Assembly (NCBI GenBank): GCA_051294905.1
Contig: CM119371.1
Coordinates: 20,338,001 to 20,402,000 of the forward strand
DNA from: Botryllus schlosseri
Lineage: Eukaryota
Length of the DNA: 64,000 bases
Direction of reading: 5' to 3'
Position numbers and translations under genes: made by a program. The notes below the pieces were generated by a model. The model was not told the DNA's origin. It worked only from the letters and a program-made list of their open reading frames with translations, and did no database searches. This document shows positions 1,294 through 35,077 of the stretch, piece by piece. The stretch's first letter is position 1. Each line of letters opens with the position of its first letter.

Positions 1294-1371
1294 ATTTTGT
1301 GCGATCTTACTTATAGTTGCAAATATTTAGAAATAGACTTAACCTATACATATTGTATTGAGGATATCATT

Positions 1372-4883: not shown

Positions 4884-5039
4884 GATGATTGAAATTGAGA
4901 CCGTGATATCATGATAAGATGATGGTGTTGATCCTTGGTGTAACAAACAAAACAGAGAACTTGATATTAATAAATTGTGGTTTCCGTTAAGACGATATTA
5001 AAGTAATTTTGATATAAATAATAGGCTTCCTTACCAGCG

Positions 5040-7466: not shown

Positions 7467-8252
7467 GCTACGGGTTATTCGATGAAAGACAAAAAAGAGA
7501 CTGAATTATTGTATTATGTTCGGCATCAGGCGTTGTCTCAACCCGAAATGATTGGACAATATTGTTGATGAGTGGGTGCTCGCATGAGCATATGGCGTGC
7601 TTTAACATTTTATGTAATCGATTTAATTAGATTGTCCGATGGAGAGTGCTGATAATAAGTTTGAATTATTGGAGTGGTATAGTTAGATTTTATGTATATC
7701 AAGGAATTTGTTAGAGAGTGCTTATGGGCGGAAATTTTCAATATTGCTTTTGAAATATGTGTTTGTATTATGTTCTTGGAGATATTCCGTATGCATATAT
7801 ATTTGCGTATTGATTTAAATGAGAGTCGCGGATTGTTTATATATAATGGTATAGGACGTAATGGTAGCGTAATTCATATATGTACTTATCTTATCAGGTT
7901 GAAACAGAGGTTATAATTAACGATAAAAGGTTATAACGTTTTGTATTGTGGGTAGAATGACCCTAGAAGGTTGAATCATTTAGATATTTAGTGTACGGGA
8001 TGCTAAATATAGATGTTTTGCTTTCTAGTCCCCAAAAAATGGTGAATAAAATCACGCCCAACCCTATTTAGGTTACATGATTGTGTAGATATGTGGAGTA
8101 ATTATTTCATTTTTTTTTGGATCAATGTATATTGAAAATTGTGTGATTTTGTGTGAATTATTTAGTATGCGTTGTAACTAGTCCACGCCCCAGCGACTAG
8201 AACCCCTACACTTGAGTGAGGCTGGACGGTGATAAAACCAAGACAAGTTGCT

Positions 8253-8260
8253 GGGGAGAA
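8253..8260 (+). promoter_or_regulatory. Polypurine tract (plus-strand priming site)
   Basis: GGGGAGAA followed by C and then TGT (8262), a typical gypsy PPT/LTR junction. Confidence 0.55.
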
Positions 8261-8261
8261 C

Positions 8262-8774
8262 TGTCATAAAATTAGATAAGTAACACCCTAGTATACTCGA
8301 GATTATACAAATACACAAAAACCTTGATCAGCCTTAAACGATAAAATGAAGATGTAACAAGCCCTTCACCAGAATGCTTTGGCCCTAGGTCAATTATGAA
8401 TACATGAAATAGACTATAGGATATGTGGAGATGCTATTGAAATATGGTCTTGATCGCATATGTGTTGAATTGCATGATTTTAGAAGACTAAGTAACAGTT
8501 GGATGCATTTTACGAATGATTGTTGCTATGGTAACATTGCTACTTGAATGTAAAGTCTAATATTGGAGTATTTGGTTGTATTAAGGTACCAAGGTCAAGT
8601 GCGTACAAATATGTTAGCTAAGACTGGACCCTAAGGTCATTGAAAGTTCAAGACACTTCGAAGGCTGCGCCACCTGCAACAGTGATTCACCAAAATTGGA
8701 TTACAAGCAAAAGAACCAGGCAAACACAATATCTTCCTACTAACAAGATTGGAGGCAAGATATTTCTACAAACA
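8262..8774 (+). repeat. Putative single LTR (~513 bp), TGT...ACA
   Basis: Starts TGTCATAAA directly after the PPT and ends TACAAACA two bases before the PBS. Inferred from boundary signals only, as there is no second copy in the window. Confidence 0.55.
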
Positions 8775-8776
8775 TT

Positions 8777-8786
8777 TGGAGGCACC
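8777..8786 (+). promoter_or_regulatory. Primer binding site, tRNA-Thr type
   Basis: CA-TT-TGGAGGCACC is complementary to the 3' end (...GGTGCCTCCA) of eukaryotic tRNA-Thr(AGT) as recalled. It lies ~240 bp upstream of gag. Confidence 0.7.
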
Positions 8787-8833
8787 CTGAGGAATTGTAT
8801 TTCAAGGCGCCTGGTAATCATTGTTCTTGCTGG

Positions 8834-8998
8834 ATGATTTCGTCTTCAGAGGCTACTGGACGGCCACGATCAAGCAGCCGGATCGCAATTTTTATTAGCG
8901 TTTGCAGTATAATAGCGTTCTCGGTCGCTTGCTACGTCATAAAGTCATTGGACCATGCGCAATTCATAATGACGGCGAATGTGTCAAATATTCAGTAA
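8834..8998 (+). CDS. Leader uORF, 54-aa putative single-pass membrane peptide
   Basis: ATG at 8834. Basic residues, then the hydrophobic stretch IAIFISVCSIIAFSVACYVI, then an NVS sequon. Lies between PBS and gag. Confidence 0.3.
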   Translation: MISSSEATGRPRSSSRIAIFISVCSIIAFSVACYVIKSLDHAQFIMTANVSNIQ

Positions 8999-9022
8999 AT
9001 AGGGGGTGATTCTAAAGCAATT

Positions 9023-11413
9023 ATGAGTTTTTTTTGGCAGAAAAAGAAAAAAAATGACGCTTCTGCACTACAAAAGAATATTGCATTGATGAAAAACACT
9101 CAGCAGCGACATCTCGCGACTCAAACTAGAAAAGACCATTTAGTATCGGAGGTTCAGGACCAAGCAAAACTTTTGAAGGAGGTAAAATCTATGCTACCTA
9201 AAACTGTTAAAGATTTGAAACAGGCTAGAAAAGATGTCAAACAGGCGGAAATTGATTTGAACGCGGTACAAAAGGCCACCGAAAAAGCCTGCACCAAGAT
9301 ATCCGCTGAAACGCTGGACCAGGTTTTGAGTAGACAATTTCAAGCGGGGGTGGATTTTGAAAAAACGGAGGGAGTGTCAAAAATACTTTCTATGCCTACA
9401 TTGGCGAACCCAAGACCGTCCGCTCCACCGCCGGATTATCGTGCAACTCAAACCATTCCGGTATTTACGAAGGCTTTGCTTCCAAGTTCTAGTGATTCCA
9501 CGCTACCAAAAAAAATTCTGAAGCAACCCGGGGCAGCGCCGACTATAACAAATCCTAGTGTTATGCAAATGTCATCATTTCCCGTGGGAGTGGCTGGATT
9601 AGATGTGATTCCAGACCACCATGTCATCAGAGGATCAATTATTGGACCACCGGATTCGGAAGGCGTGCCACGATTGCTAGCATCGCAACGTTCACGTTTA
9701 ATTGCGAAGCCGTTATTCACCCCACAAAACACACAGCGCCAAGGGCGGATTGTGGTGCCCCGGCCAGGGAAAAGAACCAGAGTTACCTGGTACGATGATG
9801 ATAAGGGGGACGAGGGTGATAATGAGGACGATGACGCAGAGTCTGATCTTATTGACCTGGATGACCATAGTAGTGATTCGGGTCAGAGTCATGTTGATGT
9901 ACCAAATACGAAGCCCATGACGATGCAAGAAATTTTAGCCATCATGAAATCGCCCGGAAGTATGCCTCTGTTGCGATTTATCGAGGATATACTTAGATGT
10001 GTACCACACGGCGATGGTGATACGATAGCGGACCGAATCTTGGCCAACGCTATACAGCATAAATTAATCATGGCAAAGAGATCGGATGAGGCGGAGCAAT
10101 TGGCAGATATACTTAGCGTTGACAATCCAAAGTGGCAAGACGCTTTGGAAATATTGTCATTGGCCAACCCAATTGAGACGTGTAATAAGGATGCGTTGAT
10201 TCGTGAATTTGCCGAGTCATTCAATTGGACAAAGACACCTATATTGGAAATTCATCGAGTTCTCAGAAAGATGGACCTGCCCCTCGATCAGATAGTAATG
10301 GGCGACCCAGATGGTATTAGACTCTTTCGAAATCTGAGGTCACTATTGCCCCCCACCCTGAGAACCCTGCTACAGGGCTATGAATTTTTGTCATGGCAAA
10401 AAATCGCCAAATTGTTGCAGGAATTTTGGAATAGTGAGAAAATGGATCGTCAAGCCGCGATAAAACCGTACGCAACTCCGGCATCTTATCCAGTGCATAA
10501 GCAAATACCGACAGCCGTTAATACACCGAATTCCGTGTCTTATCCGGTAGCCACGCCCACGCCAGTGACGATATATAATTGTCAAACTCCGAGAGATATG
10601 CCGTGCTGCCCTACTAGGAGCTCGGAAGGCGTGAGAAGTCAAACGCTGTATCAAGGAGCTGGGGTCGCTTACACGGTGGAACCCACACGGCGGAATCCTG
10701 AACGACAAGCAAAGAAGAATCGTTTTCAGCTGAATCGGAATCAGCCAACCTTGAGAGGTAGGACCGATGTGCCTAGCGATAAAAGAGACTCCACTCCAGC
10801 GGACAGTTATGAAGCAAGAAGAATAGCTCAAGAACAAGGTAGATCTTATAATTTTCTTGAGAACCCAAACGTCTTTGAAAAGCTTGGATTGTATACGCAT
10901 CCTTCTAATGGCCAGAAGTTAATGGTGTGTTACCTATGTAAAAGTATAGGGCATTCTGTCAGCCAATGTTTATGCAAAGTAATCCTCTGGATTAACCAAC
11001 TAGTACTTACTAAAGATGAGGAGGGTGAATGGATTGTCCGCCCTCGCTCGAAACCCCTTCCAAGCCCATTGTTTGAAGAAGTAAAATCTAAGTGGGAATC
11101 TTTCCTCCGAGGTGAAAATCCGGAGGGCAGAAAGCTAATGACAATCCAAGATTTAAACCAATATTTCGCTGATCAGGGGTCCCCCAGTTTGCAAGAGAGA
11201 GCGCGGTTATGCGAATTGTATTTTGACGAGCGCCCAAAACGACGTGATCCATTAAATTGGCAACATAGACCAATTTTTGAACCGCCAAATATCGAGGCGC
11301 CAATGGCTAGTGCTAATCCTGTGGTTTGTCGTCCAAATGTCGTCCAACGGCCCTTTCCTCATTGGTCGGATTCAGAATTGTTAACTGGGGTGAATTTGTC
11401 AAAAAACGGTTAG
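9023..11413 (+). CDS. gag: Gag-like polyprotein (796 aa)
   Basis: Basic N-terminus (MSFFWQKKKK), coiled-coil, PSAPPPDY late-domain motif (9416-9439), acidic linker, helical CA-like region, and zinc knuckle CYLCKSIGHSVSQC (10928-10969). Overlaps pol in the -1 frame. Confidence 0.85.
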   Translation: MSFFWQKKKKNDASALQKNIALMKNTQQRHLATQTRKDHLVSEVQDQAKLLKEVKSMLPKTVKDLKQARKDVKQAEIDLNAVQKATEKACTKISAETLDQVLSRQFQAGVDFEKTEGVSKILSMPTLANPRPSAPPPDYRATQTIPVFTKALLPSSSDSTLPKKILKQPGAAPTITNPSVMQMSSFPVGVAGLDVIPDHHVIRGSIIGPPDSEGVPRLLASQRSRLIAKPLFTPQNTQRQGRIVVPRPGKRTRVTWYDDDKGDEGDNEDDDAESDLIDLDDHSSDSGQSHVDVPNTKPMTMQEILAIMKSPGSMPLLRFIEDILRCVPHGDGDTIADRILANAIQHKLIMAKRSDEAEQLADILSVDNPKWQDALEILSLANPIETCNKDALIREFAESFNWTKTPILEIHRVLRKMDLPLDQIVMGDPDGIRLFRNLRSLLPPTLRTLLQGYEFLSWQKIAKLLQEFWNSEKMDRQAAIKPYATPASYPVHKQIPTAVNTPNSVSYPVATPTPVTIYNCQTPRDMPCCPTRSSEGVRSQTLYQGAGVAYTVEPTRRNPERQAKKNRFQLNRNQPTLRGRTDVPSDKRDSTPADSYEARRIAQEQGRSYNFLENPNVFEKLGLYTHPSNGQKLMVCYLCKSIGHSVSQCLCKVILWINQLVLTKDEEGEWIVRPRSKPLPSPLFEEVKSKWESFLRGENPEGRKLMTIQDLNQYFADQGSPSLQERARLCELYFDERPKRRDPLNWQHRPIFEPPNIEAPMASANPVVCRPNVVQRPFPHWSDSELLTGVNLSKNG

Positions 11414-14400
11414 CTACACTGGCTCATTTTGTGAACCAGTGTGCAGACGAACTATTACCACATAGAACCGCGAGAATAATAAATAATTTGTCATTGCCGT
11501 TATTTAGTATGTTCGGGGAAATTAAAGATTCTGATGATTGTAATTTCGCAAAGCTTTTTGGGGGTGAATTGATGTACCTAGTCGATATGAACACTAATGT
11601 AAATTTTTTAGCAGACACAGGAAGCGTGCCAAATTTGATGATGTCGTCGACGGCGAAATTGGTTTATCCCTATAGTTGGCGAAGGCGGTGTTCATTGCGT
11701 ATGAATTTACAAGGTATAGGTGGGTCGTCACAGGTTGAGTCATTAATATATATAGAAATTGATGGGGTTTCAATTCCTTTTGCGTGTGGTAATGTCCCGT
11801 TAAATATTATCGGATATCATTGGATAGACAAGGTTATATCGCTGCCTTCAATTGATGCGGTGTTAAAAAGCCCGTCAATTGCAAGTCACGAGCTGGCTCA
11901 GTCCGAAATAGGTGTTCCGTGTTCATTGTCGACATATGCCGTGATAGAATATGATGACGAAGGGCGGGAAATAAAAACTTTGGCCAAACAAAGAAATAAC
12001 GTGAAGAACAGCAATCGCGAAGCTGTTTCGGATGTTAGGTCGTTAGAAATTGGAAAGTCGCACCCGTGCCAATTTAATAGTGACAGCGCTGTTAGTATAT
12101 GCGCTGAAAATATTGGTGAAATGCAGGCACGAAATTTGGTCACATTCGGTGTAAAATGTGAGTGCGACGGGTTGAAAAGTTTTAGGGCGCAAGATCTTTT
12201 CAATCCAATAGGCCCCGAAGTGGATGTTGACGTAAGCGTACCGAAGCATCAAAAATCTCATAGTGGAGAGTTATTTGCCTCGTTTCTAACGACAAATAAA
12301 AGGCCAAAATATTTCCCGCGAAAAGTATTCGATGGTCCAATAACGGAATATGTGTTGCAAAATGAATCGGATATAGAGGTTAGATTGGAATTGGAAGAAC
12401 TTCGTAAGCAATCCGTATTGCTGTCAAAAACGCCATTCCAACAGCCCGATCTAAATGACGACGCCAATGCTATTATAGACGAAAAAACATGGAGAGCGGT
12501 GTATGAGCCGTTCGCCGCGGAATTAGAAGATCTCGTCGGGCATCTACAGGGAAAGCAGGCCATGATGTATCCATGTAAAATAGAACTAAAAGATGAGTCG
12601 ACTACTCCTTTTGTGTCTTCGCCTTATAATTTAAGGGGTAAAGAACAATCGACTGCTTTGGAAGAAGCAATTGACAAATTTTTGCATCTTGGTATTGCAG
12701 AAGTTGGGTTTGCGGATTGGATGTTGCCTATATTTGTGGTTCCGCAAAAGGTGAACAGCGCCCAAATGAAATCTGGGGGCTGGACCCAGAAATGGCGTGT
12801 AGTGCAGAATTTACAGCCGTTAAACTCGAAAATCCGAATAATGGAAATAAATATGCCTTTAGTAAGCGATATGAAGCAATTGGCTCAAGGTTGCGAAGTC
12901 CTCTCATTGATCGATTTACAGAAGGCTTATTTTCATATTGACGTGGCCGAAGAATCAAGACATTTCCTGGGTATTGCGGTAAAAGGGCATTATATAAGAT
13001 ATCGGAAATTACCCATGGGGCTAATATTTAGCGGGGCTTTATTTACTATTAACATTTTAGAGGGGGTTATACAACCAGTTCTTAAAAAATATAAGGCTTA
13101 TATGGAATCCCAAGGTAGAAAGGACGAATTACTTTCAAACCCAATTGAGGCTTATATTGACGATATCTTTTTATGTACAAAAAATGTGAATGATCATTTA
13201 TTCCTTCTTAAAATTGTATTCGAGCAACTTGCACTAATGAAATTGACAGTCAGTGTACATAAGTGTTATTTTGGTAAACGAAAAATCGAACTGCTGGGTT
13301 CTACAATAACCGGCCGCAATATTGAAATCCAACCTCAACGCTTGTTTGCGTTGAAAACTATGGCACCCCCAAGAAATATTTACGAATTGCGTGGGTGGAT
13401 AGGATCTATACGGTATATTTCTGATCACGTACCAAAACTAAGCGTAAAACTAGCGAACTTTGATTCGCTCACGGGCAATGTGCCTGCGACGAGGGCAAAA
13501 TTAACGCCCGTATTTTGGACAAGGCAACTTTTAGAAGATTTTAAAATAATCCAGCATAGTCTTGATGATCCTCAGATTTTGTTTCATTTTGATCCCAAAT
13601 TGCCATTGTTCGTGGAAACTGATGCTTCAGACGTTGGGTTTGGGGCAGTAATGTTCCAAACAGAACTGGGAGCCACACACCCTTTCGACACGGTGTATCC
13701 TCTTGCGTATTATAGCCATAAGTGGGTCACTTCTACCGCGCGGGCGTATAACGCTTGTACTAAAGAATTGAAGGCACTTCGTGATTCGGTTGAAAAATGG
13801 CAAACTACCTTACGATGTACTCCTTTTACAATAATCACAGATAACGCTGGAGTATATGGACTACTTCAGAGGATGACCAGCCGGGGAAAGCATCCTAGCC
13901 CTGATCTGTTATTACAACGATGGTTGAGTTATTTGTCCGGTTTTCAGATAAAACGAGTTATTAATTTGAAAACAGATGAAGTGTTCACATCGGATGGTCT
14001 GTCTCGATCTTATTGGATGCAGTTCGCGGCGGACGACCAAGACCCAGGCGTGTGGACGGTGGTCGCTGATAATCAAGGGGGCGATACAACTGGGGGTGAA
14101 GTGAGTTCAAAAAAAATTGCAGAAAAAATATGTCGACGGGTACTACAACATTGTAGGCATGAGTCTTGTAAATATGTGCAAAATGGCTACCACCCATGGA
14201 AACAAGTTCAATTAATATTGCTTGAAAGTCTCGACATCAATTTTCCGATTGACGAATTGAAAAAGGTGTTATTAAATTGCAGACGTGCAATTTTAAACGA
14301 GACGGGGGTAGCAGCGGCACATGGGCATACTCTTGGACAGACGCCTAAATATGATGAATATGAAGGTAACGACGCTTTATTCCACATAACTAAACAAGAA

Positions 14401-14625
14401 AATTTGAAGTCCATAATACAGGGCGAATTAAAATCAATGAATCGCCGCTATATACATTTCACAAATAGGCGTGCTGAGATTAAAGATAGACATCGACAGA
14501 AGGTGGTGAGCGCACAACCTCAAGTATTGCGAAGATTGGGATATCATTTTTGGCAATCACCGAACCCGGAAGTTATTTTGTGTAAAGAATCGATCCCAGG
14601 GGTATTATTAAGAGTGGAGGAATGA
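11326..14625 (+). CDS. pol: Pol polyprotein: aspartic protease, reverse transcriptase, RNase H; no integrase DDE core recognised
   Basis: FLADTGS (DTG 11614-11622); RT motifs WRVVQNLQPLN, LIDLQKAYFHI, LPMGL, YIDD (13153-13164), LLG; RNase H VETDASDVGFGAV, KELKAL, IITDN, SDGLSR. About 200 aa follow without a D,D(35)E pattern. Confidence 0.92.
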   Translation: MSSKCRPTALSSLVGFRIVNWGEFVKKRLATLAHFVNQCADELLPHRTARIINNLSLPLFSMFGEIKDSDDCNFAKLFGGELMYLVDMNTNVNFLADTGSVPNLMMSSTAKLVYPYSWRRRCSLRMNLQGIGGSSQVESLIYIEIDGVSIPFACGNVPLNIIGYHWIDKVISLPSIDAVLKSPSIASHELAQSEIGVPCSLSTYAVIEYDDEGREIKTLAKQRNNVKNSNREAVSDVRSLEIGKSHPCQFNSDSAVSICAENIGEMQARNLVTFGVKCECDGLKSFRAQDLFNPIGPEVDVDVSVPKHQKSHSGELFASFLTTNKRPKYFPRKVFDGPITEYVLQNESDIEVRLELEELRKQSVLLSKTPFQQPDLNDDANAIIDEKTWRAVYEPFAAELEDLVGHLQGKQAMMYPCKIELKDESTTPFVSSPYNLRGKEQSTALEEAIDKFLHLGIAEVGFADWMLPIFVVPQKVNSAQMKSGGWTQKWRVVQNLQPLNSKIRIMEINMPLVSDMKQLAQGCEVLSLIDLQKAYFHIDVAEESRHFLGIAVKGHYIRYRKLPMGLIFSGALFTINILEGVIQPVLKKYKAYMESQGRKDELLSNPIEAYIDDIFLCTKNVNDHLFLLKIVFEQLALMKLTVSVHKCYFGKRKIELLGSTITGRNIEIQPQRLFALKTMAPPRNIYELRGWIGSIRYISDHVPKLSVKLANFDSLTGNVPATRAKLTPVFWTRQLLEDFKIIQHSLDDPQILFHFDPKLPLFVETDASDVGFGAVMFQTELGATHPFDTVYPLAYYSHKWVTSTARAYNACTKELKALRDSVEKWQTTLRCTPFTIITDNAGVYGLLQRMTSRGKHPSPDLLLQRWLSYLSGFQIKRVINLKTDEVFTSDGLSRSYWMQFAADDQDPGVWTVVADNQGGDTTGGEVSSKKIAEKICRRVLQHCRHESCKYVQNGYHPWKQVQLILLESLDINFPIDELKKVLLNCRRAILNETGVAAAHGHTLGQTPKYDEYEGNDALFHITKQENLKSIIQGELKSMNRRYIHFTNRRAEIKDRHRQKVVSAQPQVLRRLGYHFWQSPNPEVILCKESIPGVLLRVEE
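11401..11444 (+). promoter_or_regulatory. -1 programmed ribosomal frameshift signal (gag-pol)
   Basis: Slippery heptamer A AAA AAC (11401-11407) is in the correct gag phase, with a single codon (GGT) between it and the gag TAG. A hairpin follows: ACACTGG (11416-11422) pairs with CCAGTGT (11436-11442), with extra GC/GC and TCA/TGA pairs. pol is in the -1 frame. Confidence 0.8.
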
Positions 14626-17600: not shown

Positions 17601-19015
17601 CGGCTGTAGGCTAGTGATAAACAACAACAAGATGACCGTTATTAAAAATAACATCACAGCCAATCTATTTATGTTGGAAGTGGGAATAAGTTTATTACTT
17701 CAAAGCTGATTCTGTATCTTAACTTCTTGAAATATGCGGTCGTGCCTTGAAAATCCGCGACGTCTGTTTAATATGAACAAGTGCCGAAAATCGATTTGCG
17801 CAAAGATAGCTAGTGGCGGATGTAATAACAACGCATGACACTTTCGACGACACCTTTGGGTATCATCGCGGCATGTATGATAGAAAAAGCGATTTTTAGT
17901 TAACATATAACGTCCAGCATAGTGATTGATATCTAGCAGTTCATCTTGAAATTGTTCTGGAATAGCGGTAATGCATACCACAGGAGAAAACGGATTTTAC
18001 AAACATTTCTATTCTAAAACGTCAACAAAACATCTTTAAACAGCATTGTTTGTAATGATAGGCTATGAGCAATTTGGCAATTAAAATGAGTTTGCACAGT
18101 GGAATATTTCATCTCCGACGGCCGTTCTGTTTATGTGAGTTATTAAGTTTCAGCGGTCATGAAGAGAAACGGCCACGTGATTTCTCTAATTAAAAAAGTA
18201 CGGATTAGGAGGTTTTGTGAACCCGCTGATAGTCCTTCGCGAACCCGTGATTAAGGAACACTGTTAACCGATAACTGGCACGCTGGGTTTTACTGACGCC
18301 CCATTAATTATTATTACAATCAAAATTACAATATGACAATCCTTTCTGGGATGCATCGAGCAGAAAAAGCGATGATTTACTTCAAAAACTAAGATATCGG
18401 ATTCTCCGCATTATTATTATATGTGATGAGTCAAATATACAAGATTTGATGAATCTAGAAGTTTTCGAGTGCATGTATCTATTCCAATGCGGTTACTACC
18501 CTGGAAAATTCAATGGCTTGACAAATTCTCGGCAGATAATGAGTATTGCTGTACCTTGTGAGTCACCAAATAGTTTTGAGGGGTCCGTGAAACATCAATC
18601 AATATCACGAGGAATATGCTAAAAACCGGGTATTAAATCCTGACTTTACCGCTAATACGACAATTCATCATTCACACGATTACAAAGTAGACGACTTTCA
18701 GGCCGGAATTGGGATAATCAATAGATATCAGCAGAATTTGAAATGAGTGAAGGAGAGACCTGATCTGTACATTTGGCATAATGATTATGCATTTTCCTGT
18801 AGTCAAGTCACAGGCATGATTCTGAAAGATTCAGCCCATTTTCTGGGCGTGTTTTTTCCGAGTGGATGTTTGATTATTGCATTGGCTTGAATAAAGGTTT
18901 ACCTCATATCAACTGCTGTAACGATGGTAATAGATATGCCATGAATGATATAAGTAAGAATTTTATGCTTTCGGGTCCGTCAAGGCCGTGCTAAGTAAAA
19001 GTGTGAGAACTCCTC

Positions 19016-22000
19016 AGTAGTGAGGGTGGATCAAATATACGCAGGCCAATCAGAGAGCGCCACGTCATCCTAATTGCCACGCCCATTTTCACACCCGAAG
19101 GGTATATTCATCTGCTACGTCATCTGTGCCACATCATCAAGCGCCACGCCTATAGTGCCACATCATCAATCCATTGCTATATCATCACTGCATTGATTGC
19201 CGCATCTTGATACTTTTCTCAGATATTCTATTTTGTGTATTTAGGACTAATGTCATCCGTCCATATTTTTAGACTTGATTTTATCTGTACAAGTTACGGT
19301 TTCTGCAGTGTCCACATTTTACGACTTATGATTTCCACGTCAAAACTTACCTTGGCTAGAATCGACGGCATGATTTTTGTGATAAGGACCTAGGTAACAT
19401 TCAGAGTCTGCAACGATTGTTTGGATATACATTATAGCAATACCGCACCAAACTATAGGCGGTTATATTACTCTATTGGTCAGAGATAACTCATCCGTCC
19501 ACATTTTTAAACTTGATTTTATGTATACAAGTTACGGTCTCTGCAACCGAACTTCAACGTAACGATTTTTCAGTAAGCAGTTATGTTTCCATGCTACTTT
19601 TACTTCTATTTAACGGGTTTTCATAGCGATTTTGAGTGCAGGCAGATAGCGGTTTCGATTTCCGAGGTCTCCACATTTTAAGCCTTATTATCAGTTCGCA
19701 GTACAACCGCTACCCGTATAATGTTTGCATGTCGAGTATAAGGGTATTTAACTCAGCACTAAAATGCCAACGGACTAGCCGCAGGGCCCGGTTCTCGTCG
19801 CTATAATTAAACGAACACCTTCGCCGCAGGTACGCGATCCCCGACGTTATAATGATAGGGCCAAATTAGCCGCATGAAAGCGAGTCTAATGAATATAACG
19901 ACAGACACCAAGTTAGTTGAAAAGTAAAACTAATCGTGACCGATGCAAGACGGATTGAAACAGCGCTTTCGCTCGATTCTTGTAGTGACCACATTTCATA
20001 CGATTCAGTCCTTTTCATGTCACTAGAATAAGGGTGATTAAACCGACAGTGAAACGCCGCCGGCATCTTATAACGTAATAATGTAAGCTGCGTCGGATGC
20101 TGCTATAATGTTAGGAGCGAATATAGTAGAAAGTCCACGTCTACGCATACTACCGTAGTAGAACGCAATTCACGCAAAAGTCGATATTGCTTTGTGATGA
20201 TTTTGATGTTGTTCCATACCGATTGGGAAGATAGGACTCCTAATTCCTTAACTAACTACATAATCTTTAGTAACGTAGTCAGAAGCATAACGGAATTTAC
20301 GCAAAATCGGTATTGCTCTGCGATAATTTTTACCACTATGTTTTGATAATAACTTGCTTCCGAGAAATAGATAACATTCATTATACGTTAGATGATACTT
20401 TTCCTTTATATTCTATTATGTGTATTTAGGGCTAATGCGACATCACTATGTTGGCGACAGGCCTGATTTGAACACACTAATTTTGCAAATTAAACTTATC
20501 ACCCACCACGAACACTCAGTGAAGAGCATACCCTGGAGCACCCTCATAAATGCTCTACAATTCGTGACGTATAATATATACTGAGCATATAATAAGCTGA
20601 CAAAACTGATACTTGAGTACTCCGAAATGTTCCATTGTCATAATGTCCTACACCTGTGAACCAATCTTCAAGTTGCGCATTCAATGTTTAGCTCGGTAAT
20701 TCCGTTATTAAAGTTGAGTATGCATAGGTACGTGCTACGCTCCCGCAAAAGTCGGTATGGAACTGCGTTAGTTTAAAATTTGTTCAATCATGAAATGCGT
20801 AACAAAATTTGACATGGTGCATTGTCATAATAATGTCTTACAACTGCGTACCGAGTTTCAAGGTGGGGAGTCGAATATTAACATGGTAATTCCGCTATTA
20901 AAGTTGACTATGTATCGTGCTACGCTACGGAAAAAGAGATTTAGCCAAAATTCTGTATCGAACTGCTTTGGTTTTAAAGGTGTTACATCATGAAATGTCT
21001 GACGAAATTTGGTATGGTGCATTGTTATTATGTCCTACAACTGTGTACTAACGTTCAAGGTGAGAATTTAATGTTTAGCATACTAATTCTGTTATTGAAA
21101 TTGACTATGTATGGGTATATGCTATGTTCACGAAAATCAGATATGCGTAAAAGTCGGCATTCGACTGCGATAGTTTCAAAGGTGTTCCATCATTAGATGT
21201 GTGATGAAATTTAGCATGGTGCATTGCCATAAGGCTCTACAACTACGTATCAAGTTTAGAGTTGGTATTCAATGTTAAGCATGGTAATTCCGTTATTAAA
21301 GTTGGCTATGTATGGATACGTGCAATACGCTCCCGCAAAACAGATGTATGCAAAAAGTCGATGTAAAGCCGCGTTAGTGTTAAAGTTGTTCCATCATGAA
21401 ATGTGTGATGGGATTTGGTATGGTGCATTTTTATAATGTCCTATAACCGCGTACCAACTTTCAAGGTGGGAATTCAATGTTTAACACGGTAATTCTGCTA
21501 TTGAAATTGACTATGTATAGGTATATGCTATGTTCACGCAAAACAGATATGCGTAAAAGTCGGTATTCGACTGCGTTAGTTTTAAAGGTGTTCCTTGATT
21601 AGATGTGTGATGAAATTTAGCATGGTGCAACAAAAGTCTGTATCGAACTGCTTTAGTTTTAAAGGTGTTACATCATGAAATGTCTGACGAAATTTGGTAT
21701 GGTGCATTGTTATTATGTCCTACAACTGTGTACTAACGTTCAATGTGAGAATTTAATGTCTAGCATACTAATTCTGTTATTGAAATTGACTATGTATTGG
21801 TATATGCTATGTTCACGAAAATCAAATATGCGTAAAAGTCGGTATTCGACTGCGATAGTTTCAAAGGTGTTCCATCATTAGATGTGTGATGAAATTTAGC
21901 ATGGTGCATTGCCATAAGGCTCTAACTACGTATCAAGTTTCGAGTTGGGATTCAATGTTAAGCATGCTAATTCCGGTTTTAAAGTTGGCTATGTATGGGT

Positions 22001-22763
22001 ACGTGCTATACGCTCGCGTAAAACAGATGTACGCAAAAAGTCGATGTAGAGCCGCGTTTAGTTTTAAAGTTGTTCCATCATGAAATGTGTGATGGGATTT
22101 GGTATGGTGCATTGTTAAAACGACCTATAACCGCGTACCAACTTTCACGTTGGGAATTCTATGTTTAACACGGTCATTCTGCTATTAAAATTGACTATGT
22201 ATAGATATATGCTATGTTCACGCAAAACAGATATGCGCAAAAGTCGGTATTCGACTGCGTTAGTTTTAAAGGTGTTCCATCATTAGATGTGTGATGAAAT
22301 TTAGCATGGTGCATTGCCCTAATGTCCTACAACTACGTATCAAGTTTAGAGTTGGGATTCGATGTTAAGCATGGTAGTTCCGTTATTAGAGTTGACTATG
22401 TATATATGTACACGCTACCGAAAACAGATTTAGGCAAAAGTTGCTATGGAACTGCGTTAGTTTTAAAGTTGTTCCATCATGAAATGTGTGATGAAATTTG
22501 GTATGCTGCATAATCACAATGTTCTACAACTACGTACCAAGTTTCAAGGTGAGGAGTCACATATTAGCATGGTAATTCTGTTATTAAAGCTGACTATGTA
22601 TATGTACACGCTACCGAAAACAGATTTAGGCAAAAGTTACTACAGAACTGCGTTAGTTTTAAAGTTGTTCCATCATGAAATGTGTGATGAAATTTGGTAT
22701 GCTGCATAATCACAATGCCCTGGAGCTCATTTAGATACGTTTTTAAATGTAGTTACACATTCT
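19016..22763 (+). repeat. Left terminal inverted arm (~3.75 kb)
   Basis: Reverse complement of 25208-28079, near-identical. Mirror ORFs are identical (19866-20066 vs 27029-27229; 20790-21196 vs 25899-26305). It is longer because of extra tandem units. Confidence 0.95.
20630..22730 (+). repeat. Diverged ~200-bp tandem repeat array inside the left arm
   Basis: Recurring core CATCATGAAATGTGTGATGAAATTTGGTATGGTGCATTG near 20787, 20987, 21190, 21393, 21672, 21874, 22076, 22278, 22475 and 22672. Includes a higher-order ~685-bp duplication. Confidence 0.9.
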
Positions 22764-22949
22764 TGAATACTAATTAAAAAATAAAAAATAAAGAGCGAAA
22801 AATTACATTTTATCCCGGGACGTAACAAGAAAAATCGTATGAATTTGTAAACTACTTATTCGGTAAACTACTCTTTACTTCACAAAACAAAGTTACAAAA
22901 GTAAGCAGATTTATATGAAAACCCGTTAATTAGAAGTAAAAGTAATAAC

Positions 22950-23500
22950 AATGCATCATACCACATTTGATCACAATTTCATGATACAATACCTTTAAAA
23001 CTAACGCAGTTCTCTACACACTTTTGCGTAAATCTGTGTTTCGCTAGCGTAGCACGTACCTATACATAGTAAGCTTCAATAACGGAATTACCATGCTAAT
23101 AATCAAATCCTCACCCTGAAACTTGGTACGCGGTTATAGGACATTATGAAAATACAACATACCAAAATTTCGTCAGACATTTCATGATGTAACACCTTTA
23201 AAACCAACGCAGTTCTATGCCGACTTTTGGCTAAATCTGTTATCCATAGCGCAGCACGTACCTATACATAGTCACCTTTAAAACGGAATTACCGTGTTAA
23301 TAATCGGCTCCTCACCTTGAAACTCGGTACGCAGTTGTAATACATTATGACAATGTACCATGTAAAATTTTGTTACGCATTTCATGATTGAACAACTTGA
23401 AAACTAACGCAGTTCTATACCGACATTTGCGTGAAACTGTTTTGCGGGAGCTTAGCACATACCTATGCGTAGTCAACTTTAATGACGGAATTACAGATGT
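22950..23500 (-). repeat. About three further units of the ~200-bp repeat, in reverse orientation, in the spacer
   Basis: Reverse-complement cores (ATACCAAA..TCAGACATTTCATGAT) near 22960, 23160 and 23360. Confidence 0.8.
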
Positions 23501-23858
23501 AATTAGGTTTCAGCACTTTTACAACGATTCTTCTTGCTTCCTATAACATCCCACTCGAAGCCCTCGTTATTAGGCTATGATCTCAGCCTATGAGCTATGT
23601 CTTGAAGCCTAATGGGACTTTGCAAACTGTTTCGATTTATTCTACCCGTTTTAATTTAAGGAAGCCCATTTCACTCAATGTATCGATGCCTACAGTATAG
23701 AGTATACTCTACAAAATTTTCTGATTAATTCTCCCTATGTTAATTTACCATAAGACAATTTGACTCCTAAAGTCCGAAATACTCGTTCGCTTGAGCTAAA
23801 CCGCAGCGCCAGGAGTGGAATTTTATAGTTCTTGTAAAAAGTTGTTTGTACACAATAT

Positions 23859-24927
23859 ATGTTTAAGGTAAGTCCTACGCATTCATGATTTCGTCCGAGT
23901 TTGTATTTTAGTAATATATACTAATTTACGATACCGCGTTTGTAACTTGTGCAAGTATAGGCCTACAGAAATAGCATAGTTCTTGAACCGTGCTCAATGC
24001 TCAATAGACCATTTTTGCTATTTTTCATCGCCATAAGTCATTCTGGATCGCGTAAACGCATCGTACGATATAGATGAAAGTTATGCAAATTCTAGGATCC
24101 TCATTTTCAAAGTAGCTTAGATCTCGAAATAAGCTCCGACTCGCTATTTTCCTCAAAGCATGGAATTACACGAGTATCACCTTCGATCGCTGAAGAAAAG
24201 GATGAGATTATATCCGAAGCATATTCCTTGACCAGGAATTTTATCATGTACGAACTCGATGGCTCATGCGTTAAGGTAAATACGAAAGCAGAGAGAACCT
24301 TACGTCGAGTTGGGGATGAAATGTTCGAGCGACATCGAACTGTCCTAAACGCAGTCTCCAAACGTCTCCGCTATAGCGATGTAGAAGTCAATGAAAAATA
24401 TAAAGAATATTTACCCGATGAGCGAATGTTCCAGATGATAGCTGATGAAATTTGCAAAGATACCAAAGAAAATTGGGGTAGGATTGTCTCCCTTTTTGTG
24501 CTCGGTAGCATTCTTGCTCGCAAGAACGAGGATGAACATCATGGGGAGCATATAGAAGCTATCATACAGACAGTCGGAAATTACATTGCTAGCAGAAGAC
24601 TAAAGTGGATAGTGCGAAATGGAGGATGGGTGGGTGATTTACATGCTTTGCTTAGGATTTATAAATTATCTTTTAGCTTGAGATATATAGTGTATCCGCT
24701 CCCCAGAGCCCATATCATCTCTCGATGATGAAACTCAGCTTTACCTTCCAATTCGGTTCCCGATACGATAACTTTCATCCGTATGATCATTAAAGCTTCT
24801 ATTTTTGTTGTAGGATGGCTTTGTAGGATTCTTTGACAATACCGCTCTCGACTACAATAAAGTTTGGAAGGGACTCGTGTTTGTCGGAATCGGACTGACA
24901 TCTATAGCAATGGCATTATCAAGATAA
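23859..24927 (+). CDS. Bcl-2 family anti-apoptotic-type protein (MCL1/Bcl-2-like), 3 exons: 23859-23867, 24096-24629, 24814-24927 (218 aa)
   Basis: BH3 TLRRVGDEMF, BH1 ENWGRIVSLF, and BH2 WIVRNGGW|DGFVGFF joined across a phase-0 GT..AG intron (24630-24813) at the position conserved in Bcl-2-family genes. BH4-like ISEAYSLTRNFIMYEL; C-terminal TM anchor VWKGLVFVGIGLTSIAMAL; AATAAA at 24966. Exon 1 (ATG TTT AAG|GTAAGT) is in phase with the acceptor at 24095 but is less certain. Confidence 0.9.
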
Positions 24928-25207
24928 TGGATGCTCGCATGTTTTGTCTCATGTAATATTTTAAGAATAAAATTTACTTATTCATGACATATTAATAATT
25001 CTACTTGTACATTTTTTCACATTTTATAACACTTCAAATAGTACTTAACAGTTTCAGTTTTAATTAAAATACGGAATATAAACTAATCGAAAAATTCGGT
25101 AACCAATTTCATGTAGGCTATGCATACAAATGAGGAAATTACATCAACTCGTGTTACACTAGTTGTATCGAGTTATCGAATGATTTTTTCCTTGCACCAA
25201 AACAACT

Positions 25208-28079
25208 AGAATGTGTAACTACATTTAAAAAAAAAGTATCTAAATGAGCTCCAGGGCATTGTGATTATGCAGCATACCAAATTTCATCACACATTTCATG
25301 ATGGAACAACTTTAAAACTAACGCAGTTCCATAGCAACTTTTGCCTAAATCTGTTTTCGGTAGCGTGTACATATATACATAGTCAACTCTAATAACGGAA
25401 CTACCATGCTTAACATCGAATCCCAACTCTAAACTTGATACGTAGTTGTAGGACATTAGGGCAATGCACCATGCTAAATTTCATCACACATCTAATGATG
25501 GAACACCTTTAAAACTAACGCAGTCGAATACCGACTTTTGCGCATATCTGTTTTGCGTGAACATAGCATATATCTATACATAGTCAATTTTAATAGCAGA
25601 ATGACCGTGTTAAACATAGAATTCCCAACGTGAAAGTTGGTACGCGGTTATAGGTCGTTTTAACAATGCACCATACCAAATCCCATCACACATTTCATGA
25701 TGGAACAACTTTAAAACTAAACGCGGCTCTACATCGACTTTTTGCGTACATCTGTTTTACGCGAGCGTATAGCACGTACCCATACATAGCCAACTTTAAT
25801 AACGGAATTACCATGCTTAACATTGAATACCAACTCTAAACTTGATACGTAGTTGTAGAGCCTTATGGCAATGCACCATGCTAAATTTCATCACACATCT
25901 AATGATGGAACACCTTTGAAACTATCGCAGTCGAATGCCGACTTTTACGCATATCTGATTTTCGTGAACATAGCATATACCCATACATAGTCAATTTCAA
26001 TAACAGAATTAGTATGCTAAACATTAAATTCTCACCTTGAACGTTAGTACACAGTTGTAGGACATAATAACAATGCACCATACCAAATTTCGTCAGACAT
26101 TTCATGATGTAACACCTTTAAAACCAAAGCAGTTCGATACAGAATTTTGGCTAAATCTCTTTTTCCGTAGCGTAGCACGATACATAGTCAACTTTAATAG
26201 CGGAATTACCATGTTAATATTCGACTCCCCACCTTGAAACTCGGTACGCAGTTGTAAGACATTATTATGACAATGCACCATGTCAAATTTTGTTACGCAT
26301 TTCATGATTGAACAAATTTTAAACTAACGCAGTTCCATACCGACTTTTGCGGGAGCGTAGCACGTACCTATGCATACTCAACTTTAATAACGGAATTACC
26401 GAGCTAAACATTGAATGCGCAACTTGAAGATTGGTTCACAGGTGTAGGACATTATGACAATGGAACATTTCGGAGTACTCAAGTATCAGTTTTGTCAGCT
26501 TATTATATGCTCAGTATATATTATACGTCACGAATTGTAGAGCATTTATGAGGGTGCTCCAGGGTATGCTCTTCACTGAGTGTTCGTGGTGGGTGATAAG
26601 TTTAATTTGCAAAATTAGTGTGTTCAAATCAGGCCTGTCGCCAACATAGTGATGTCGCATTAGCCCTAAATACACATAATAGAATATAAAGGAAAAGTAT
26701 CATCTAACGTATAATGAATGTTATCTATTTCTCGGAAGCAAGTTATTATCAAAACATAGTGGTAAAAATTATCGCAGAGCAATACCGATTTTGCGTAAAT
26801 TCCGTTATGCTTCTGACTACGTTACTAAAGATTATGTAGTTAGTTAAGGAATTAGGAGTCCTATCTTCCCAATCGGTATGGAACAACATCAAAATCATCA
26901 CAAAGCAATATCGACTTTTGCGTGAATTGCGTTCTACTACGGTAGTATGCGTAGACGTGGACTTTCTACTATATTCGCTCCTAACATTATAGCAGCATCC
27001 GACGCAGCTTACATTATTACGTTATAAGATGCCGGCGGCGTTTCACTGTCGGTTTAATCACCCTTATTCTAGTGACATGAAAAGGACTGAATCGTATGAA
27101 ATGTGGTCACTACAAGAATCGAGCGAAAGCGCTGTTTCAATCCGTCTTGCATCGGTCACGATTAGTTTTACTTTTCAACTAACTTGGTGTCTGTCGTTAT
27201 ATTCATTAGACTCGCTTTCATGCGGCTAATTTGGCCCTATCATTATAACGTCGGGGATCGCGTACCTGCGGCGAAGGTGTTCGTTTAATTATAGCGACGA
27301 GAACCGGGCCCTGCGGCTAGTCCGTTGGCATTTTAGTGCTGAGTTAAATACCCTTATACTCGACATGCAAACATTATACGGGTAGCGGTTGTACTGCGAA
27401 CTGATAATAAGGCTTAAAATGTGGAGACCTCGGAAATCGAAACCGCTATCTGCCTGCACTCAAAATCGCTATGAAAACCCGTTAAATAGAAGTAAAAGTA
27501 GCATGGAAACATAACTGCTTACTGAAAAATCGTTACGTTGAAGTTCGGTTGCAGAGACCGTAACTTGTATACATAAAATCAAGTTTAAAAATGTGGACGG
27601 ATGAGTTATCTCTGACCAATAGAGTAATATAACCGCCTATAGTTTGGTGCGGTATTGCTATAATGTATATCCAAACAATCGTTGCAGACTCTGAATGTTA
27701 CCTAGGTCCTTATCACAAAAATCATGCCGTCGATTCTAGCCAAGGTAAGTTTTGACGTGGAAATCATAAGTCGTAAAATGTGGAAACTGCAGAAACCATA
27801 ACTTGTACACATAAAATCAAGTCTAAAAATATGGACGGATGACATTAGTCCTAAATACACAAAATAGAATATCTGAGAAAAGTATCAAGATGCGGCAATC
27901 AATGCAGTGATGATATAGCAATGGATTGATGATGTGGCACTATAGGCGTGGCGCTTGATGATGTGGCACAGATGACGTAGCAGATGAATATACCCTTCGG
28001 GTGTGAAAATGGGCGTGGCAATTAGGATGACGTGGCGCTCTCTGATTGGCCTGCGTATATTTGATCCACCCTCACTACT
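25208..28079 (-). repeat. Right terminal inverted arm (~2.87 kb)
   Basis: See left arm. Inner junction AGAATGTGTAACTAC (25208) mirrors GTAGTTACACATTCT (ends 22763). Confidence 0.95.
25250..26465 (-). repeat. ~200-bp tandem repeat array inside the right arm (fewer units)
   Basis: Reverse complement of the left-arm array, lacking ~0.9 kb of units. Confidence 0.9.
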
Positions 28080-28962
28080 CCCCTCCTCCCTAAATCAAAT
28101 AAATATTTCAGTTGTCCATCCTTGTATAGTGTGTCAGGATTGGTTGGCGAATTGAAGGAGAAATTGAAACATTCATCGCAATAGCATAAAAATATTGTCA
28201 GTCTCCTATATGTAACAATAACGGGATATTCATTCTGGATCATGGATTACAAATACCTCGCACGTTTCCATTCGATTACGCAATCGAGTACATTTCTTGC
28301 TCCTAAAACTCGGACTCCCACAGGCTCCAAGCCGTTTTCTTATCCTTATGCATTTTCTGAATCTCTCAGTTATACTGAAAAATAATATTAGACTCGGTAA
28401 AACCAAACCTTACAATCGTGCAATGACAGTAGTTGCTCTCGTCGATCAAACCACCCGTCGCGAAGATGAACAAATCGTACAATGTACACTCTACAGATCC
28501 AGCGATTTTGTCTCTATACCGACTAGTTACTGATATGTCATTTGACTCGAAAATTTCACTTCCAGTCACGAATCTCACGGGAGTAAAGTCATGTCTTAGA
28601 TTGGAGCGGTTCTCAATAGCCACTCCGCGGACCGGTACCGGTTCGTGAAGTCTCCTGCCGGTCCGCCAAAGATAATTAGACTTCTCTATTTGAATTCGAA
28701 ATTTCTAGACATTTTAAGAGACAAATAAAACATCAAAGTGTAAATTGATTTAGAAGTATGGCATGAATTTCTGCATGGTCATGGTCTGCTTTCAGCGTAC
28801 ATCTCAATGGTGCAAGTATCTCACGAAACTGTTCAAAAGTTGCCCACAACTCGTGTCGTACAAGTTTTATACGTGGAGTCTACGGAGACGTTTACGAAAA
28901 CTTAATTCGTTAATTCTGATAGTGCGAATAATCGACACAGAGGTTTATAATAGAGACTATAG

Positions 28963-31130: not shown

Positions 31131-31939
31131 ATCCAGACACTATGAACAGCGCAAGAACGATAACAATACCAACAAAAAAATTATAGATCCGGTGACGAGT
31201 TAGCTTTCGGAGAAAATCTTGGCATGAACTTCAAAATGTGCAAGCCCAAATTGCGATTTTCAGTACTTTAGATCCCGCATCGAGGACTCCCGATTACATT
31301 CGGTGATATTTATATTTCTTTCATAGTATATACAATACATACGTGAGTCCTTTCATAAATCGAGCATATCTGCGACCTGCGCTAGTGCCGCGTATGCTTG
31401 AGCAGATAACCACACAAACGAACAGGGCGATAAGTATAGCGGTCTTCATGTCTTAGTGTGTATACCTATAAATTCAATATCATGTTATTATACTTGACAA
31501 TTCCTACGCCTCTCGTTTCAGAATAGTTCAATAACCTGAAAAAACCTCTAGACACAAAGGTACACAGAAGTGAAGATGCATTCTTATGCAAAATATATGT
31601 CATTGAGACAACATGCATGATCAATTACCCGTCAATATGTGTGTCGAGTACGAACGCGAGCTCTCTAAGTTACAGTTATTACTGCCTCATAAAACTAATG
31701 CCATATAATTTGGGTGCGACGAAATCATTACAGAGCTCCATCACACTTTTTGTTTTACTGCAAATCATTTTCCTAAGCTCAGCCGTATGGGCCCAGCAGG
31801 TTGATTTTTCGGCCTGATTTGAGCTGGAAACTGGTACAAAATCTGTATTGATAATAAGCCGAGCGCCCTATTTCGTCCCACTCATGCCAGAAATATTTTC
31901 TAGTCACGAAACATCGGAGCCCGACGCGAATTTTATCAC

Positions 31940-34280
31940 TCATGCAAAATGTTACCCGGCAGGTATAGGCGCCAACCCCCGCGTAAACAAATGCATTGGA
32001 GCCGAAGAGAAAACTCGGCCTTGAAACGACTGTGTATCTATATTGGCCATTGCATCATTTGCATATAGGCTACTCGGTTTACAGTTTACACGAATGTGAT
32101 GTCTGTGCGGAATACAGTGTGCCGAGGACGGTGAACCCTTTCGTTTTGTTTTGCAGTGAATATTTTGGAGAACGGCCCCATCTGAGCACAGACGCACAGA
32201 CGTTTCTAAAGTCAAGTGCAATGCTTTTACTCCTAGTTGACCGGGAAACTGTTCATATTTACTTGACGTTATCATATTGACTGGAAGGGACACACGGCAT
32301 ATGATTTCCTGGTCACGCAATAAACACGTTCCATATGCACAAGTCATAGCAGCTAAGCACCATTTCGCATAAATACCCATCCATCCCACATATGACAAAT
32401 TTTAAAATATGCATCAAAACGCTACAATGTCAAAAAACAGTTTTTCCCTTCGAAATATTCTAATCGACATCCGAAATTTAAATCTTGCATGACTATGCCC
32501 CTGTGACTGATGCTGTTGCTACTGCTAAAAGGCGCTTTTGTCGGCTGATTAGGCTCGCGAAATAGTTTCCCAGTTTTTCAACATTATACAAAACTATTAT
32601 TATAGGGGTGCGTTTTGCATAGACATTGTCGCATATTTTCCAACGGGAAATATAAAATGAAAATAATTTCAATGATATGAGTAGACCTGTTCAAAATGTA
32701 TAATATGAAGGCCTGATCTCGTACCAACTGGACAGTGTAAATTCAGCTAAACGCTATACTCTTACCCCACAAGATTAAGTGACAGTAGTATCAGAAATGC
32801 AGCAGCCAACGTACTGATTATTGAAAACACTCAGCATCCTGTCAGCTTGAGAAAGGATATCCTACAAATATATAAGTATATTCTCAATATCACTACTATA
32901 TCCTAAATATTCATAGGTGGTCATACGAAAAATACTTCTACGAAAGTACTCCGAGCAGGTTTCGCCTCATTGAATTACTTGGCTATCACAATTCCAACCT
33001 GATATTTGACAGTTCATTCTACCTTTCATCATTTCAGAAAAGCAACATATTTATGTATTTCTATTAATGATCGGGCTCATATAACGCGTGCTATTCCCAT
33101 AGGCTTAGAAACAACGCCTTTCATTTTTCTGCATCAACATCAAAAACCTTTTCAAACAGTATTGGGTCTGAGGCTTATTTCGACGTCGGGAATGTCTTTT
33201 CTATCACGCGTACAGGTATTTATAGCAGTGCAAATTGCACAATATCCAATTCGAGAGAACTGCTTCAAATTTTAAAAAAGTGGATTTTGTTTGAGAACGC
33301 GACCAGCAGAACTATATCTGTGGTTTTCCACTCACTCAGCAATGAATTCAGCTGTCTTATCATACATATGCACGTAAATGTAGGCGTTGAAAGTTCTCGA
33401 TTTAGTGATATTTGCTGGACTCCACGTATGCCTTCCGACAGACGACCTATAGTTGATATAAACTAGAGGCATAGAACCTCTTCAATCACGTATTTATCTA
33501 CCCATATAAAACATAATTGAATTTTAATGTAAACTTCAAGTTTAAAGCATATATAGACCAAAATAGTCTTCACCGTATTTACCAACGTAGTGTACCTCAA
33601 TATCTGCTGATGTCATTGAGACACATGTGGTCCATCGAAGTTGTGAACAAGTTTTTTGAACTCTGGCTACATGTCAGACGTAAAAATGGAAAAGCCCTTT
33701 GTGACGGAGCATGACATAGGCCTACTTGTTACGCGACCAAAAACCGAAAACAAAGAATCGAAGAACAAAAATAACCTAAGAATAAGCTACTACGGTCACT
33801 ATAATTCGAAGTAGTAAGCAAGAAGGGGGGATTTCGTCAGACTGTGAAGTATCGTCGGCGATGGAACTTTAGCCACTGATCGCGCATGGTGGCCCTTTCC
33901 TTACATTTAGGGTCCTACGACAATATGCGACCAGCAGAGCGAAATTATGCGCCCCGTGAATAAACGCAAACCAGGAATAGCGCGCGGCCCAACAAAGAAG
34001 TTTTTCTATTACTTGGTTGTGGTACGTGTGAGCGATCTTTTGAGTAGTGACAACTATCTTTGGAGGCAATGAAATAACAGAATAATCAAACTAAGAAATT
34101 ACTGACAATTGGCGAGTTCGACCCTCACCCTCGAGAAACCTATGAATGTCTCACCGTATGGGATGAACTTCAACAATGAACATAATATATAGCTCAAAGT
34201 GTGTAATTTCGTTTGTTTTTATCAGCTCTACGGGTAAATCTGATAATGATAACGTAGCCTGTATACAACATGCAAGTAAC
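31940..34280 (-). pseudogene. Decayed RNase H-bearing non-LTR retrotransposon (LINE), copy A; 3' segment (31940-32390) inverted
   Basis: Colinear with 54640-57330. The + strand 31996-32280 encodes a LINE C-terminal-like segment and ends in a CCATCCATCC-like tail; the minus strand carries frameshifted RT-like motifs. Confidence 0.5.
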
Positions 34281-35077
34281 AATAGTATTGACCAATTTTA
34301 TTATTTACCTTTAAAACTTTTCGCGCTTGGCGCGGAAGTGCGGATCCTGTGAGTTTCCGTAGCATCATTATTCTAACATACCATAACGTCTGTGCGTGAA
34401 ATGTAAGTGTAAATATCTCCCATAAGTTGAGTTAATCATCGAAGAAGGATCAAAGACGATCGTTTAACTGCGTTTTTCATAAATCTTCAAACGGCGAAAC
34501 ACGCGGGCTGTATGTCTCCTGCTCCTGATATAAATCATGTGCTTTATGGCTGCGGTAAAAGCGTTTTCATACAAACCACATACTGGGGCAAACATTCTCT
34601 CCGTTATTCGTTTATACTGTCGTTTCGTCATGAGTAAAATATATCATGCTTACTACAATGGTAGCTCTAGTAGCCTAGTCAGCCAGTCTCGCCAGTTGCT
34701 TTGGTGTCTTTGTTGTAAATCTGGTGTAACTCAAAGACACCGATTTTAAATGGATGAACAGCTCAAATATTATATTTTTATCATATATTTGCAGTCGTTT
34801 TAGCGCTGCAAAGGCCAACAAATCTTCAATTAAATACACATAATACAGCCAGCTCTTCGAGTACTTATTTTAAAAGCACTCTGGTACCCACTAGTGGTCG
34901 GCTTAGCACAGTTCTAATGGCATTGCGTCTGATGGTGTATTTGTCGAGTAGATTGCAGAATTGACGCTTGCGCTCTCTTAAGTACAATACCTTCGTACGA
35001 AATTCATTCACTGAATTTTCGCGCTCTGCTGCAACATTAACGAAGGCTATATTTCATCAATACATTCGGAATGTGAG

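Follow-up and report, generated by a model that had tools for sequence, protein, structure and literature searches.

Viral Bcl-2 genes are textbook cases of capture from a host, in which the capture step itself is rarely visible and the introns have usually been lost. The DNA analysed here, a stretch of 64,000 nucleotides from Botryllus schlosseri (hereafter the window), contains a Bcl-2 gene that lies with its introns inside a repetitive element, and raises the question of how the gene came to be there, what carries it, and whether it is a working gene or a remnant. The answer that we hold to be rather probable is that of an intron-bearing Bcl-2 gene in what is likely a non-autonomous Maverick, likely captured as genomic DNA from an ascidian host and likely kept for blocking apoptosis.

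The Bcl-2 gene and its relatives

The gene is read from the forward strand. Its exon 2 (24096-24629), open for 178 codons, consists of a likely 5' UTR followed by a Bcl-2 domain in the order BH4-BH3-BH1-BH2 (with TLRRVGDE, NWGR and GGW). The BH3, BH1 (NWGR) and BH2 (GGW) motifs are all present and the Pfam profile PF00452 matches the exon with an E-value of 1.2e-21 (77.6 bits, cut-off 31.4), which upholds the presence of a Bcl-2 gene at this locus as first proposed from the letters alone. Immediately 3' of GGW comes intron 2 (24630-24813; 184 nt, GT..AG, phase 0). Removing it, as the original prediction had it, does restore GGW-DGFVGFF and a hydrophobic tail: the coding part of exon 3 (24814-24927) encodes a C-terminal membrane anchor and a stop, its best 19-residue Kyte-Doolittle mean is 1.78, and the tail aligns over 37 residues with the C-terminus that Styela clava bcl-2-like protein 2 has after splicing (19 of them identical, E 3e-12). 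An anchor coded on a separate exon after GGW is the Bcl-2 family's arrangement, the splice here being predicted from sequence. The poly(A) signal that had been noticed is found too (AATAAA, 24966-24971), and no A-tract lies 3' of it.

That intron 2 is the conserved cellular one also holds up. According to the relevant part of PMC8998228, exon 1 of prosurvival Bcl-2 genes is as a rule untranslated and their coding part is divided at GGW into two exons, and in all eight of the unspliced relative ORFs that reach BH2 (two of which belong to one cluster) GGW is followed by a valine (GTN), as expected from a GT donor. At the level of structure, the closest solved entries by sequence (PDB) are Mcl-1 and BCL2L10, and the predicted model (pLDDT 76.8, with residues 1-28 under 50) adopts the all-helical Bcl-2 fold; Foldseek puts A1, Bax, Bcl-xL and Mcl-1 on top with a probability of 1.00, the TM-score to A1 being about 0.6.

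When 1.84 billion representatives were searched with a profile, four proteins came out below 1e-30, first among them the Styela clava gene (XP_039252627), the closest named protein, with 50% identity in exon 2, that is in the domain, and 51% in exon 3. A quick tree built from 70 rows puts the window protein into one clade with this gene, five unnamed Logan proteins and P0171, a further copy (SH-aLRT 99). The window gene has a stem of 0.92, against 0.2-0.45 for its sisters; the Styela gene differs from it in this shorter stem and in having one chromosomal record in its cluster. The link from the clade to vertebrate MCL1 and A1 has a support of 88 with long branches, and a Bcl-B/Mcl-1/Bfl-1 prosurvival clade is named in a section of PMC10959488. 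The label "MCL1-like" is thus an approximation: the protein groups with the Styela gene in an ascidian clade that may have a loose tie to the Bcl-B/Mcl-1/A1 group, the link to vertebrate MCL1 and A1 being weak, and strict MCL1 orthology was dropped. Matches in the ESM Atlas were to generic Bcl-2 clusters only. Among viral contigs, 34 candidate stretches found by protein gave no confirmed relative, as did 145 candidates among metagenome contigs, and the search for the terminal motifs yielded none in either. Judging from these sequences, the gene is likely host-derived, and the host in question likely a stolidobranch ascidian.

The carrier element and its surroundings

The claim that the gene is cargo proved right, for it sits inside a mobile element with a target-site duplication and an empty paralogous site. 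The insertion measures 9,064 bp (19016-28079) and has the Bcl-2 gene as its sole recognisable cargo. Its left inverted arm (19016-22763 on the forward strand, the inner end being approximate) begins with AGTAGT and carries extra duplicated satellite units, with tandem units of about 202 bp at 20627-22721 on the reverse strand; its right arm (25208-28079, reverse strand) ends with ACTACT and holds six 202-bp units at 25267-26468. Between them lies a unique central loop of 2.4 kb (22764-25207), in which the Bcl-2 gene is preceded upstream by a satellite block of 2.6 units, oriented as in the right arm (22946-23494, forward strand). The arms, 2.9-3.7 kb in length, pair at 99.1% identity over 2,615 bp (19016-21629 with 28079-25465) and again at 98.4% over 893 bp (21631-22521 with 26149-25257). 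Since their outer 2,300 bp show only three mismatches, the insertion must be recent. On its two sides stand CTCCTC (19010-19015) and CCCCTC (28080-28085), which match in 5 of 6 positions; both flanks continue an older repeat, with which a paralogous copy at 61887-62359, free of the insertion, is colinear, and this sets the length of the target duplication at 6 bp.

Mavericks, as far as the relevant part of PMC8097293 describes them, end in (AGT)2//(ACT)2 or (AG)3//(CT)3 and have terminal inverted repeats and a 6-bp duplication; in those of vertebrates, whose ends are (AGT)2//(ACT)2, the repeats measure 46-1,447 bp and eight intronless core ORFs are contained in 12.7-24.6 kb. The window element shares with them its (AGT)2//(ACT)2 ends, the 6-bp duplication and the presence of terminal inverted repeats, which are longer than the reported range. 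It differs in its size of 9.1 kb, its satellite-bearing arms, its spliced cargo and the lack of any core ORF: in 19016-28079 we found no pPolB, integrase, ATPase, protease or capsid gene, no ATG-started ORF of at least 100 aa besides the Bcl-2 gene, and no stop-free stretch of more than 90 codons except the Bcl-2 exon. This last result means that the element is not autonomous, and with its core genes missing it was rejected as a member of the autonomous Mavericks/Polintons. From its ends and duplication, the carrier is likely a non-autonomous Maverick/Polinton derivative with giant arms.

Some further traits of the element are recorded here in their own right. Within the left arm some 685 bp are duplicated (20946-22313, 94.9% identity); the right arm is without this duplication, which shows slippage of satellite units. 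A 31-bp piece of the loop (22914-22944) matches the outer arm at 97% (19595-19625 and 27470-27500), which suggests that the loop is the leftover of a longer arm. The terminal 200 bp (19016-19200) hold CCAAT, ACGTCA and GCCACGCCC-like words along with repeated CATCATC units, which together may recall the origin motifs of adenoviruses. In each arm there is a further perfect AGGTAAGT donor-like site (27743 on the forward and 19352 on the reverse strand), both facing outward, and no ORF was recognised at them.

Elsewhere in the window, a separate reverse-transcriptase element occupies 142-14625. It has a gag-like ORF and a pol that combines reverse transcriptase and RNase H with a Tpt1/KptA-type domain at the C-terminus (PF01885, E 2.7e-7), and in which no integrase match was obtained. 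Accessory ORFs at 5040-5954 (E 6.5e-9) and 6876-7466 (E 5e-6) have a PWWP3A/B domain at their C-terminus, and for two large ORFs in an envelope-like layout neither PDB nor Pfam offered a match of weight. An unclassified 2.5-kb repeat is present twice, in diverged form (73-83%), at 31901-34281 and 54600-57326; AT-rich tandem arrays with a 41-42-bp period lie at 50268-50372 and 51669-51907, and Rfam gave 0 matches in the 64 kb.

Start codon, copies and transcription

Whether this copy can make the protein depends on where translation starts. The original prediction had placed the start in a 9-nt first coding exon. The elements of that proposal exist: ATGTTTAAG|GTAAGT is found at 23859-23873, with candidate exon 1 (of which 23859-23867 would be the 3' end) closed by an AG|GTAAGT donor, and a candidate intron 1 of 228 nt (23868-24095, GT..AG, defined from sequence) brings it in phase with exon 2 in a frame of 218 codons that has no internal stop. 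The coding status of the exon was not borne out. In an independent database record, protein P0008 (94% identical), the first residue is the methionine of ATG 24160, and the frame reads on from there into the Bcl-2 domain without a break. This codon (24160-24162) bears A at -3 and G at +4; the ATG at 23859 bears neither. In the window copy, ATG 24160 stands in a different frame from the domain by reason of a one-base frameshift relative to sister copies (24167-24170), which is either a real mutation or an assembly error. An ungapped comparison with the N-terminal 11 residues of the relatives favours the frame of 24160 too weakly to be relied on (scores of 15 and 12 versus 11 and 7), and tblastn of the relatives gave no extension upstream of 24180 in any frame. 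On the sister sequences, the coding start of the gene is likely ATG 24160, exon 1 is likely untranslated and the window copy is either frameshifted or misassembled. As sister copies start at 24160, the in-phase 9-nt exon probably rests on the one-base indel, and the earlier judgement that the gene is probably functional finds no support in this copy, where the normal start lies in another frame than the domain.

Reads from 4 of 24 listed sequencing runs were compared with 23500-25400 at a cut-off of 88% identity, below which the introns of diverged copies may fall; one run (X21) contributed 0 reads. In X24, an RNA run of which about 6% was read, 119 reads were placed, of which 113 fit partly and 86 are under 95% identical. 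In two runs, X18 and X1, coverage extends over introns as well as exons, and their contigs range from less than 90% to more than 99% identity within single runs, so that several diverged copies must be present and the summed depth is not a copy number. X1, although supposed to be RNA, is treated as DNA-like because both introns are evenly covered. At about 24168 the one-base difference from the window is seen in both aligned RNA reads of X24 (2/2, with 8 more clipped at 24169), in all of the depth of X1 (20.7/20.7) and in 23.8 of 33 depth units of X18, the remainder being undecided.

Two readings of the frameshift would leave the window copy able to make its protein. One takes the indel for an assembly or read error in a copy that is really intact and starts at 24160, and we regard it as a serious possibility while leaning against it. 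All resolved records of other copies show the other state, among them the contig most similar to the window sequence (X18 record 9, which differs in 3 other letters out of 173 and one gap), in an element whose insertion is very recent; against this stand the roughly 9 of 33 undecided depth units in X18 and the fact that further copies of the gene are broken too. The other reading retains the start in exon 1 and a working 218-aa protein, whether by design or by a chance rescue of the frameshift. An ATG and a donor in phase without a stop, the rarity of AGGTAAGT (3 occurrences in the window on both strands) and an added N-terminus that is predicted to be disordered (pLDDT below 50 in residues 1-28) and would leave the domain unharmed all speak for it. 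It is nonetheless unlikely, given the use of 24160 by sister copies and the weak context of the upstream ATG; in addition, X24 shows no depth on exon 1 and 5 RNA reads covering 24091, inside the supposed intron 1, and in shuffled sequence about 5% of cases yield, by chance, 24 open codons in a row together with an upstream ATG in phase. For annotation this means that the start should likely be set at 24160 and that the window copy should not be scored as intact without read support.

The RNA data concern the family rather than this copy. Depth in X24 is 5.8-25.4 in the bins of exon 2, 13.3 in one bin of exon 3 and 0.42/0.38 in those of intron 2, for which X18 and X1 have 32/39 and 115/39, respectively. 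No junction at 23867/24096 or 24629/24814 rose above the listing threshold in X24, the sole RNA run with reads, at the 6% read. Exons of the family are transcribed, for the most part in diverged copies, and the pattern in X24 fits spliced mRNA from such copies or from a resident gene.

Copies differ in their protein by up to about 17%, and not all of them are whole. One copy in ENA seems to be represented by two ORFs, P0008 and P0172, whose contigs are equally long and which we infer to be a single broken copy, while both NWGR and GGW are preserved in P0171, which is 83% identical. Two observations in X18 indicate variants without the gene, namely a junction linking 23911 to 25168 in one contig and, in two contigs, loose ends at 24975 that match 22830-22852. 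The apparent joining site of the gene-less variant is a 9-bp direct repeat (22853-22861 and 24975-24983, forward strand), of a length at which such words also occur by chance. Gene-bearing and gene-less loops seem to differ by the segment between these repeats. The Bcl-2 cassette, together with the satellite block upstream, may thus be a presence/absence polymorphism. Among the 40 of 168 variants listed, 15 fall in exons 2-3; leaving aside 24137, which lies upstream of the frameshift, 8 of 14 coding variants are synonymous, versus 27% expected (p 0.016), and in this respect the family carries some purifying signal.

Probable capture and maintenance of the cargo, and its significance

The separate ingredients of this locus are known already: an intron-bearing viral Bcl-2 gene in the herpesvirus of turkeys (HVT), Bcl2 in adintoviruses and intron-bearing cargo in Mavericks, as reported in parts of the papers cited here. 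The HVT gene, vNr-13, codes for a prosurvival Bcl-2 homolog that inhibits apoptosis (PMC7199394). It too resides on a dsDNA element, has two coding exons and one intron in the cellular layout, and encodes all BH motifs and a TM anchor. It lies, moreover, within inverted repeat regions. Its carrier is a herpesvirus, and ours an integrated element of 9 kb that lacks replication genes, with the gene in the loop, single per element and frameshifted, and an anti-apoptotic role that is only predicted. Maverick-type elements with an anti-apoptotic Bcl2 homolog, and with IAP homologs, are known as well among adintoviruses and animal Mavericks, and possess the PolB, integrase and capsid genes that our element lacks (PMC8502044); introns in their Bcl2 genes are not mentioned in the passages at hand of that paper, whose Fig. 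S2 leaves the Bcl2 contigs uncertain. Nematode Mavericks share with the window element an intron-containing, host-derived cargo (wasp/krma; bioRxiv 10.1101/2022.07.12.499685). Theirs, a protease or a kinase, accompanies core genes in elements that are largely complete; ours regulates cell death and is carried by an element with giant arms and no core genes. A BCL-2 domain has also been described in a planarian retrotransposon, in the portion of PMC6431247 that we draw on. In a search that covered few subscription papers, we found no literature on a core-less or non-autonomous Maverick with Bcl-2, or on Mavericks of ascidians.

The course of events that we propose would begin in the nucleus, with the recombination of a host gene of the Bcl-B/Mcl-1/A1 group, introns and poly(A) signal included, into a Maverick. 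This capture would be old, because copies have diverged so far in protein. Derivatives, whether before or after the capture, would have lost the polymerase, integrase and capsid genes, and the core-less copies would arise through protein-primed copying that starts at the AGTAGT ends and would hold the arms near-identical, and would be integrated in trans by the integrase of a helper Maverick. Splicing by the host would yield a membrane-anchored protein which, by analogy with vNr-13, could block apoptosis by sequestering Bax/Bak-type BH3 motifs, so that the cell would survive while the element replicates. Once integrated, copies would decay, the one in the window being likely unable to use its normal start. 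Against this account can be set the mismatch in one of six positions of the target duplication and arms of 2.9-3.7 kb in place of the 46-1,447 bp of vertebrate Mavericks; moreover, the broken ENA copy (P0008/P0172) and the gene-less variants fit decay as well as function.

It is on this last point that the main rival differs, in which the gene was captured once, spread by the element alone and is now a neutral passenger of no benefit to it. A frameshift in the window, the apparent split of the ENA copy, the gene-less variants (the joint from 23911 to 25168 and the loose ends at 24975) and RNA that may stem from a resident gene all accord with such a history, which we nevertheless find somewhat improbable in view of the synonymous excess (8 of the 14 listed variants), the intact BH motifs and anchor, and the retention of NWGR and GGW in P0171 at 83% identity. 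The other rivals concern carrier and route. Foldback elements have very long arms, internal tandem repeats and a variable loop, a description that our core-less element resembles, and it could in principle be a cut-and-paste element of the Foldback/Galileo or Pack-MULE type with a captured host gene; these families make target duplications of 7-9 bp, though, and AGTAGT//ACTACT ends with a 6-bp duplication are the signature of Mavericks (as given in part of PMC8097293), which renders this origin very unlikely. As to the route, the prediction of capture as DNA and not as a retrocopy is supported by the retained introns. A processed retrocopy is excluded, since the GGW intron is kept and there is no poly(A) tract, while an unspliced RNA template would still be compatible with these introns taken by themselves. 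A resident host gene between chance repeats was likewise discarded, on the target duplication within an old repeat and the multicopy state. Reverse transcription of an unspliced pre-mRNA, or else a resident gene that happens to be flanked by inverted repeats, strikes us as most improbable, for both candidate introns and sequence upstream are present in the absence of a poly(A) tract, and the unit as a whole, which occurs in many copies, lies within an old repeat between the two copies of a target duplication. We retain a likely genomic capture by a Maverick-type element, likely maintained for an anti-apoptotic effect.

The significance of the locus lies in the survival of a cellular intron, an anchor exon and a poly(A) signal in a multicopy, polymorphic family of the Maverick type. 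With gene-bearing, broken and gene-less versions together, one genome could show the gain, the keeping and the loss of an anti-apoptotic gene, and such a family could show whether the cargo is selected for the element or for the host. A bolder view, which we think quite unlikely, is that of core-less, giant-armed Maverick satellites reduced to one host-derived, spliced inhibitor of apoptosis and spreading partly through the survival of the cells that carry them. In colonial ascidians, stem-cell lineages compete inside chimeras. If that view were true, the element would be a selfish survival cassette in a colonial ascidian, biasing which germ or stem cells persist.
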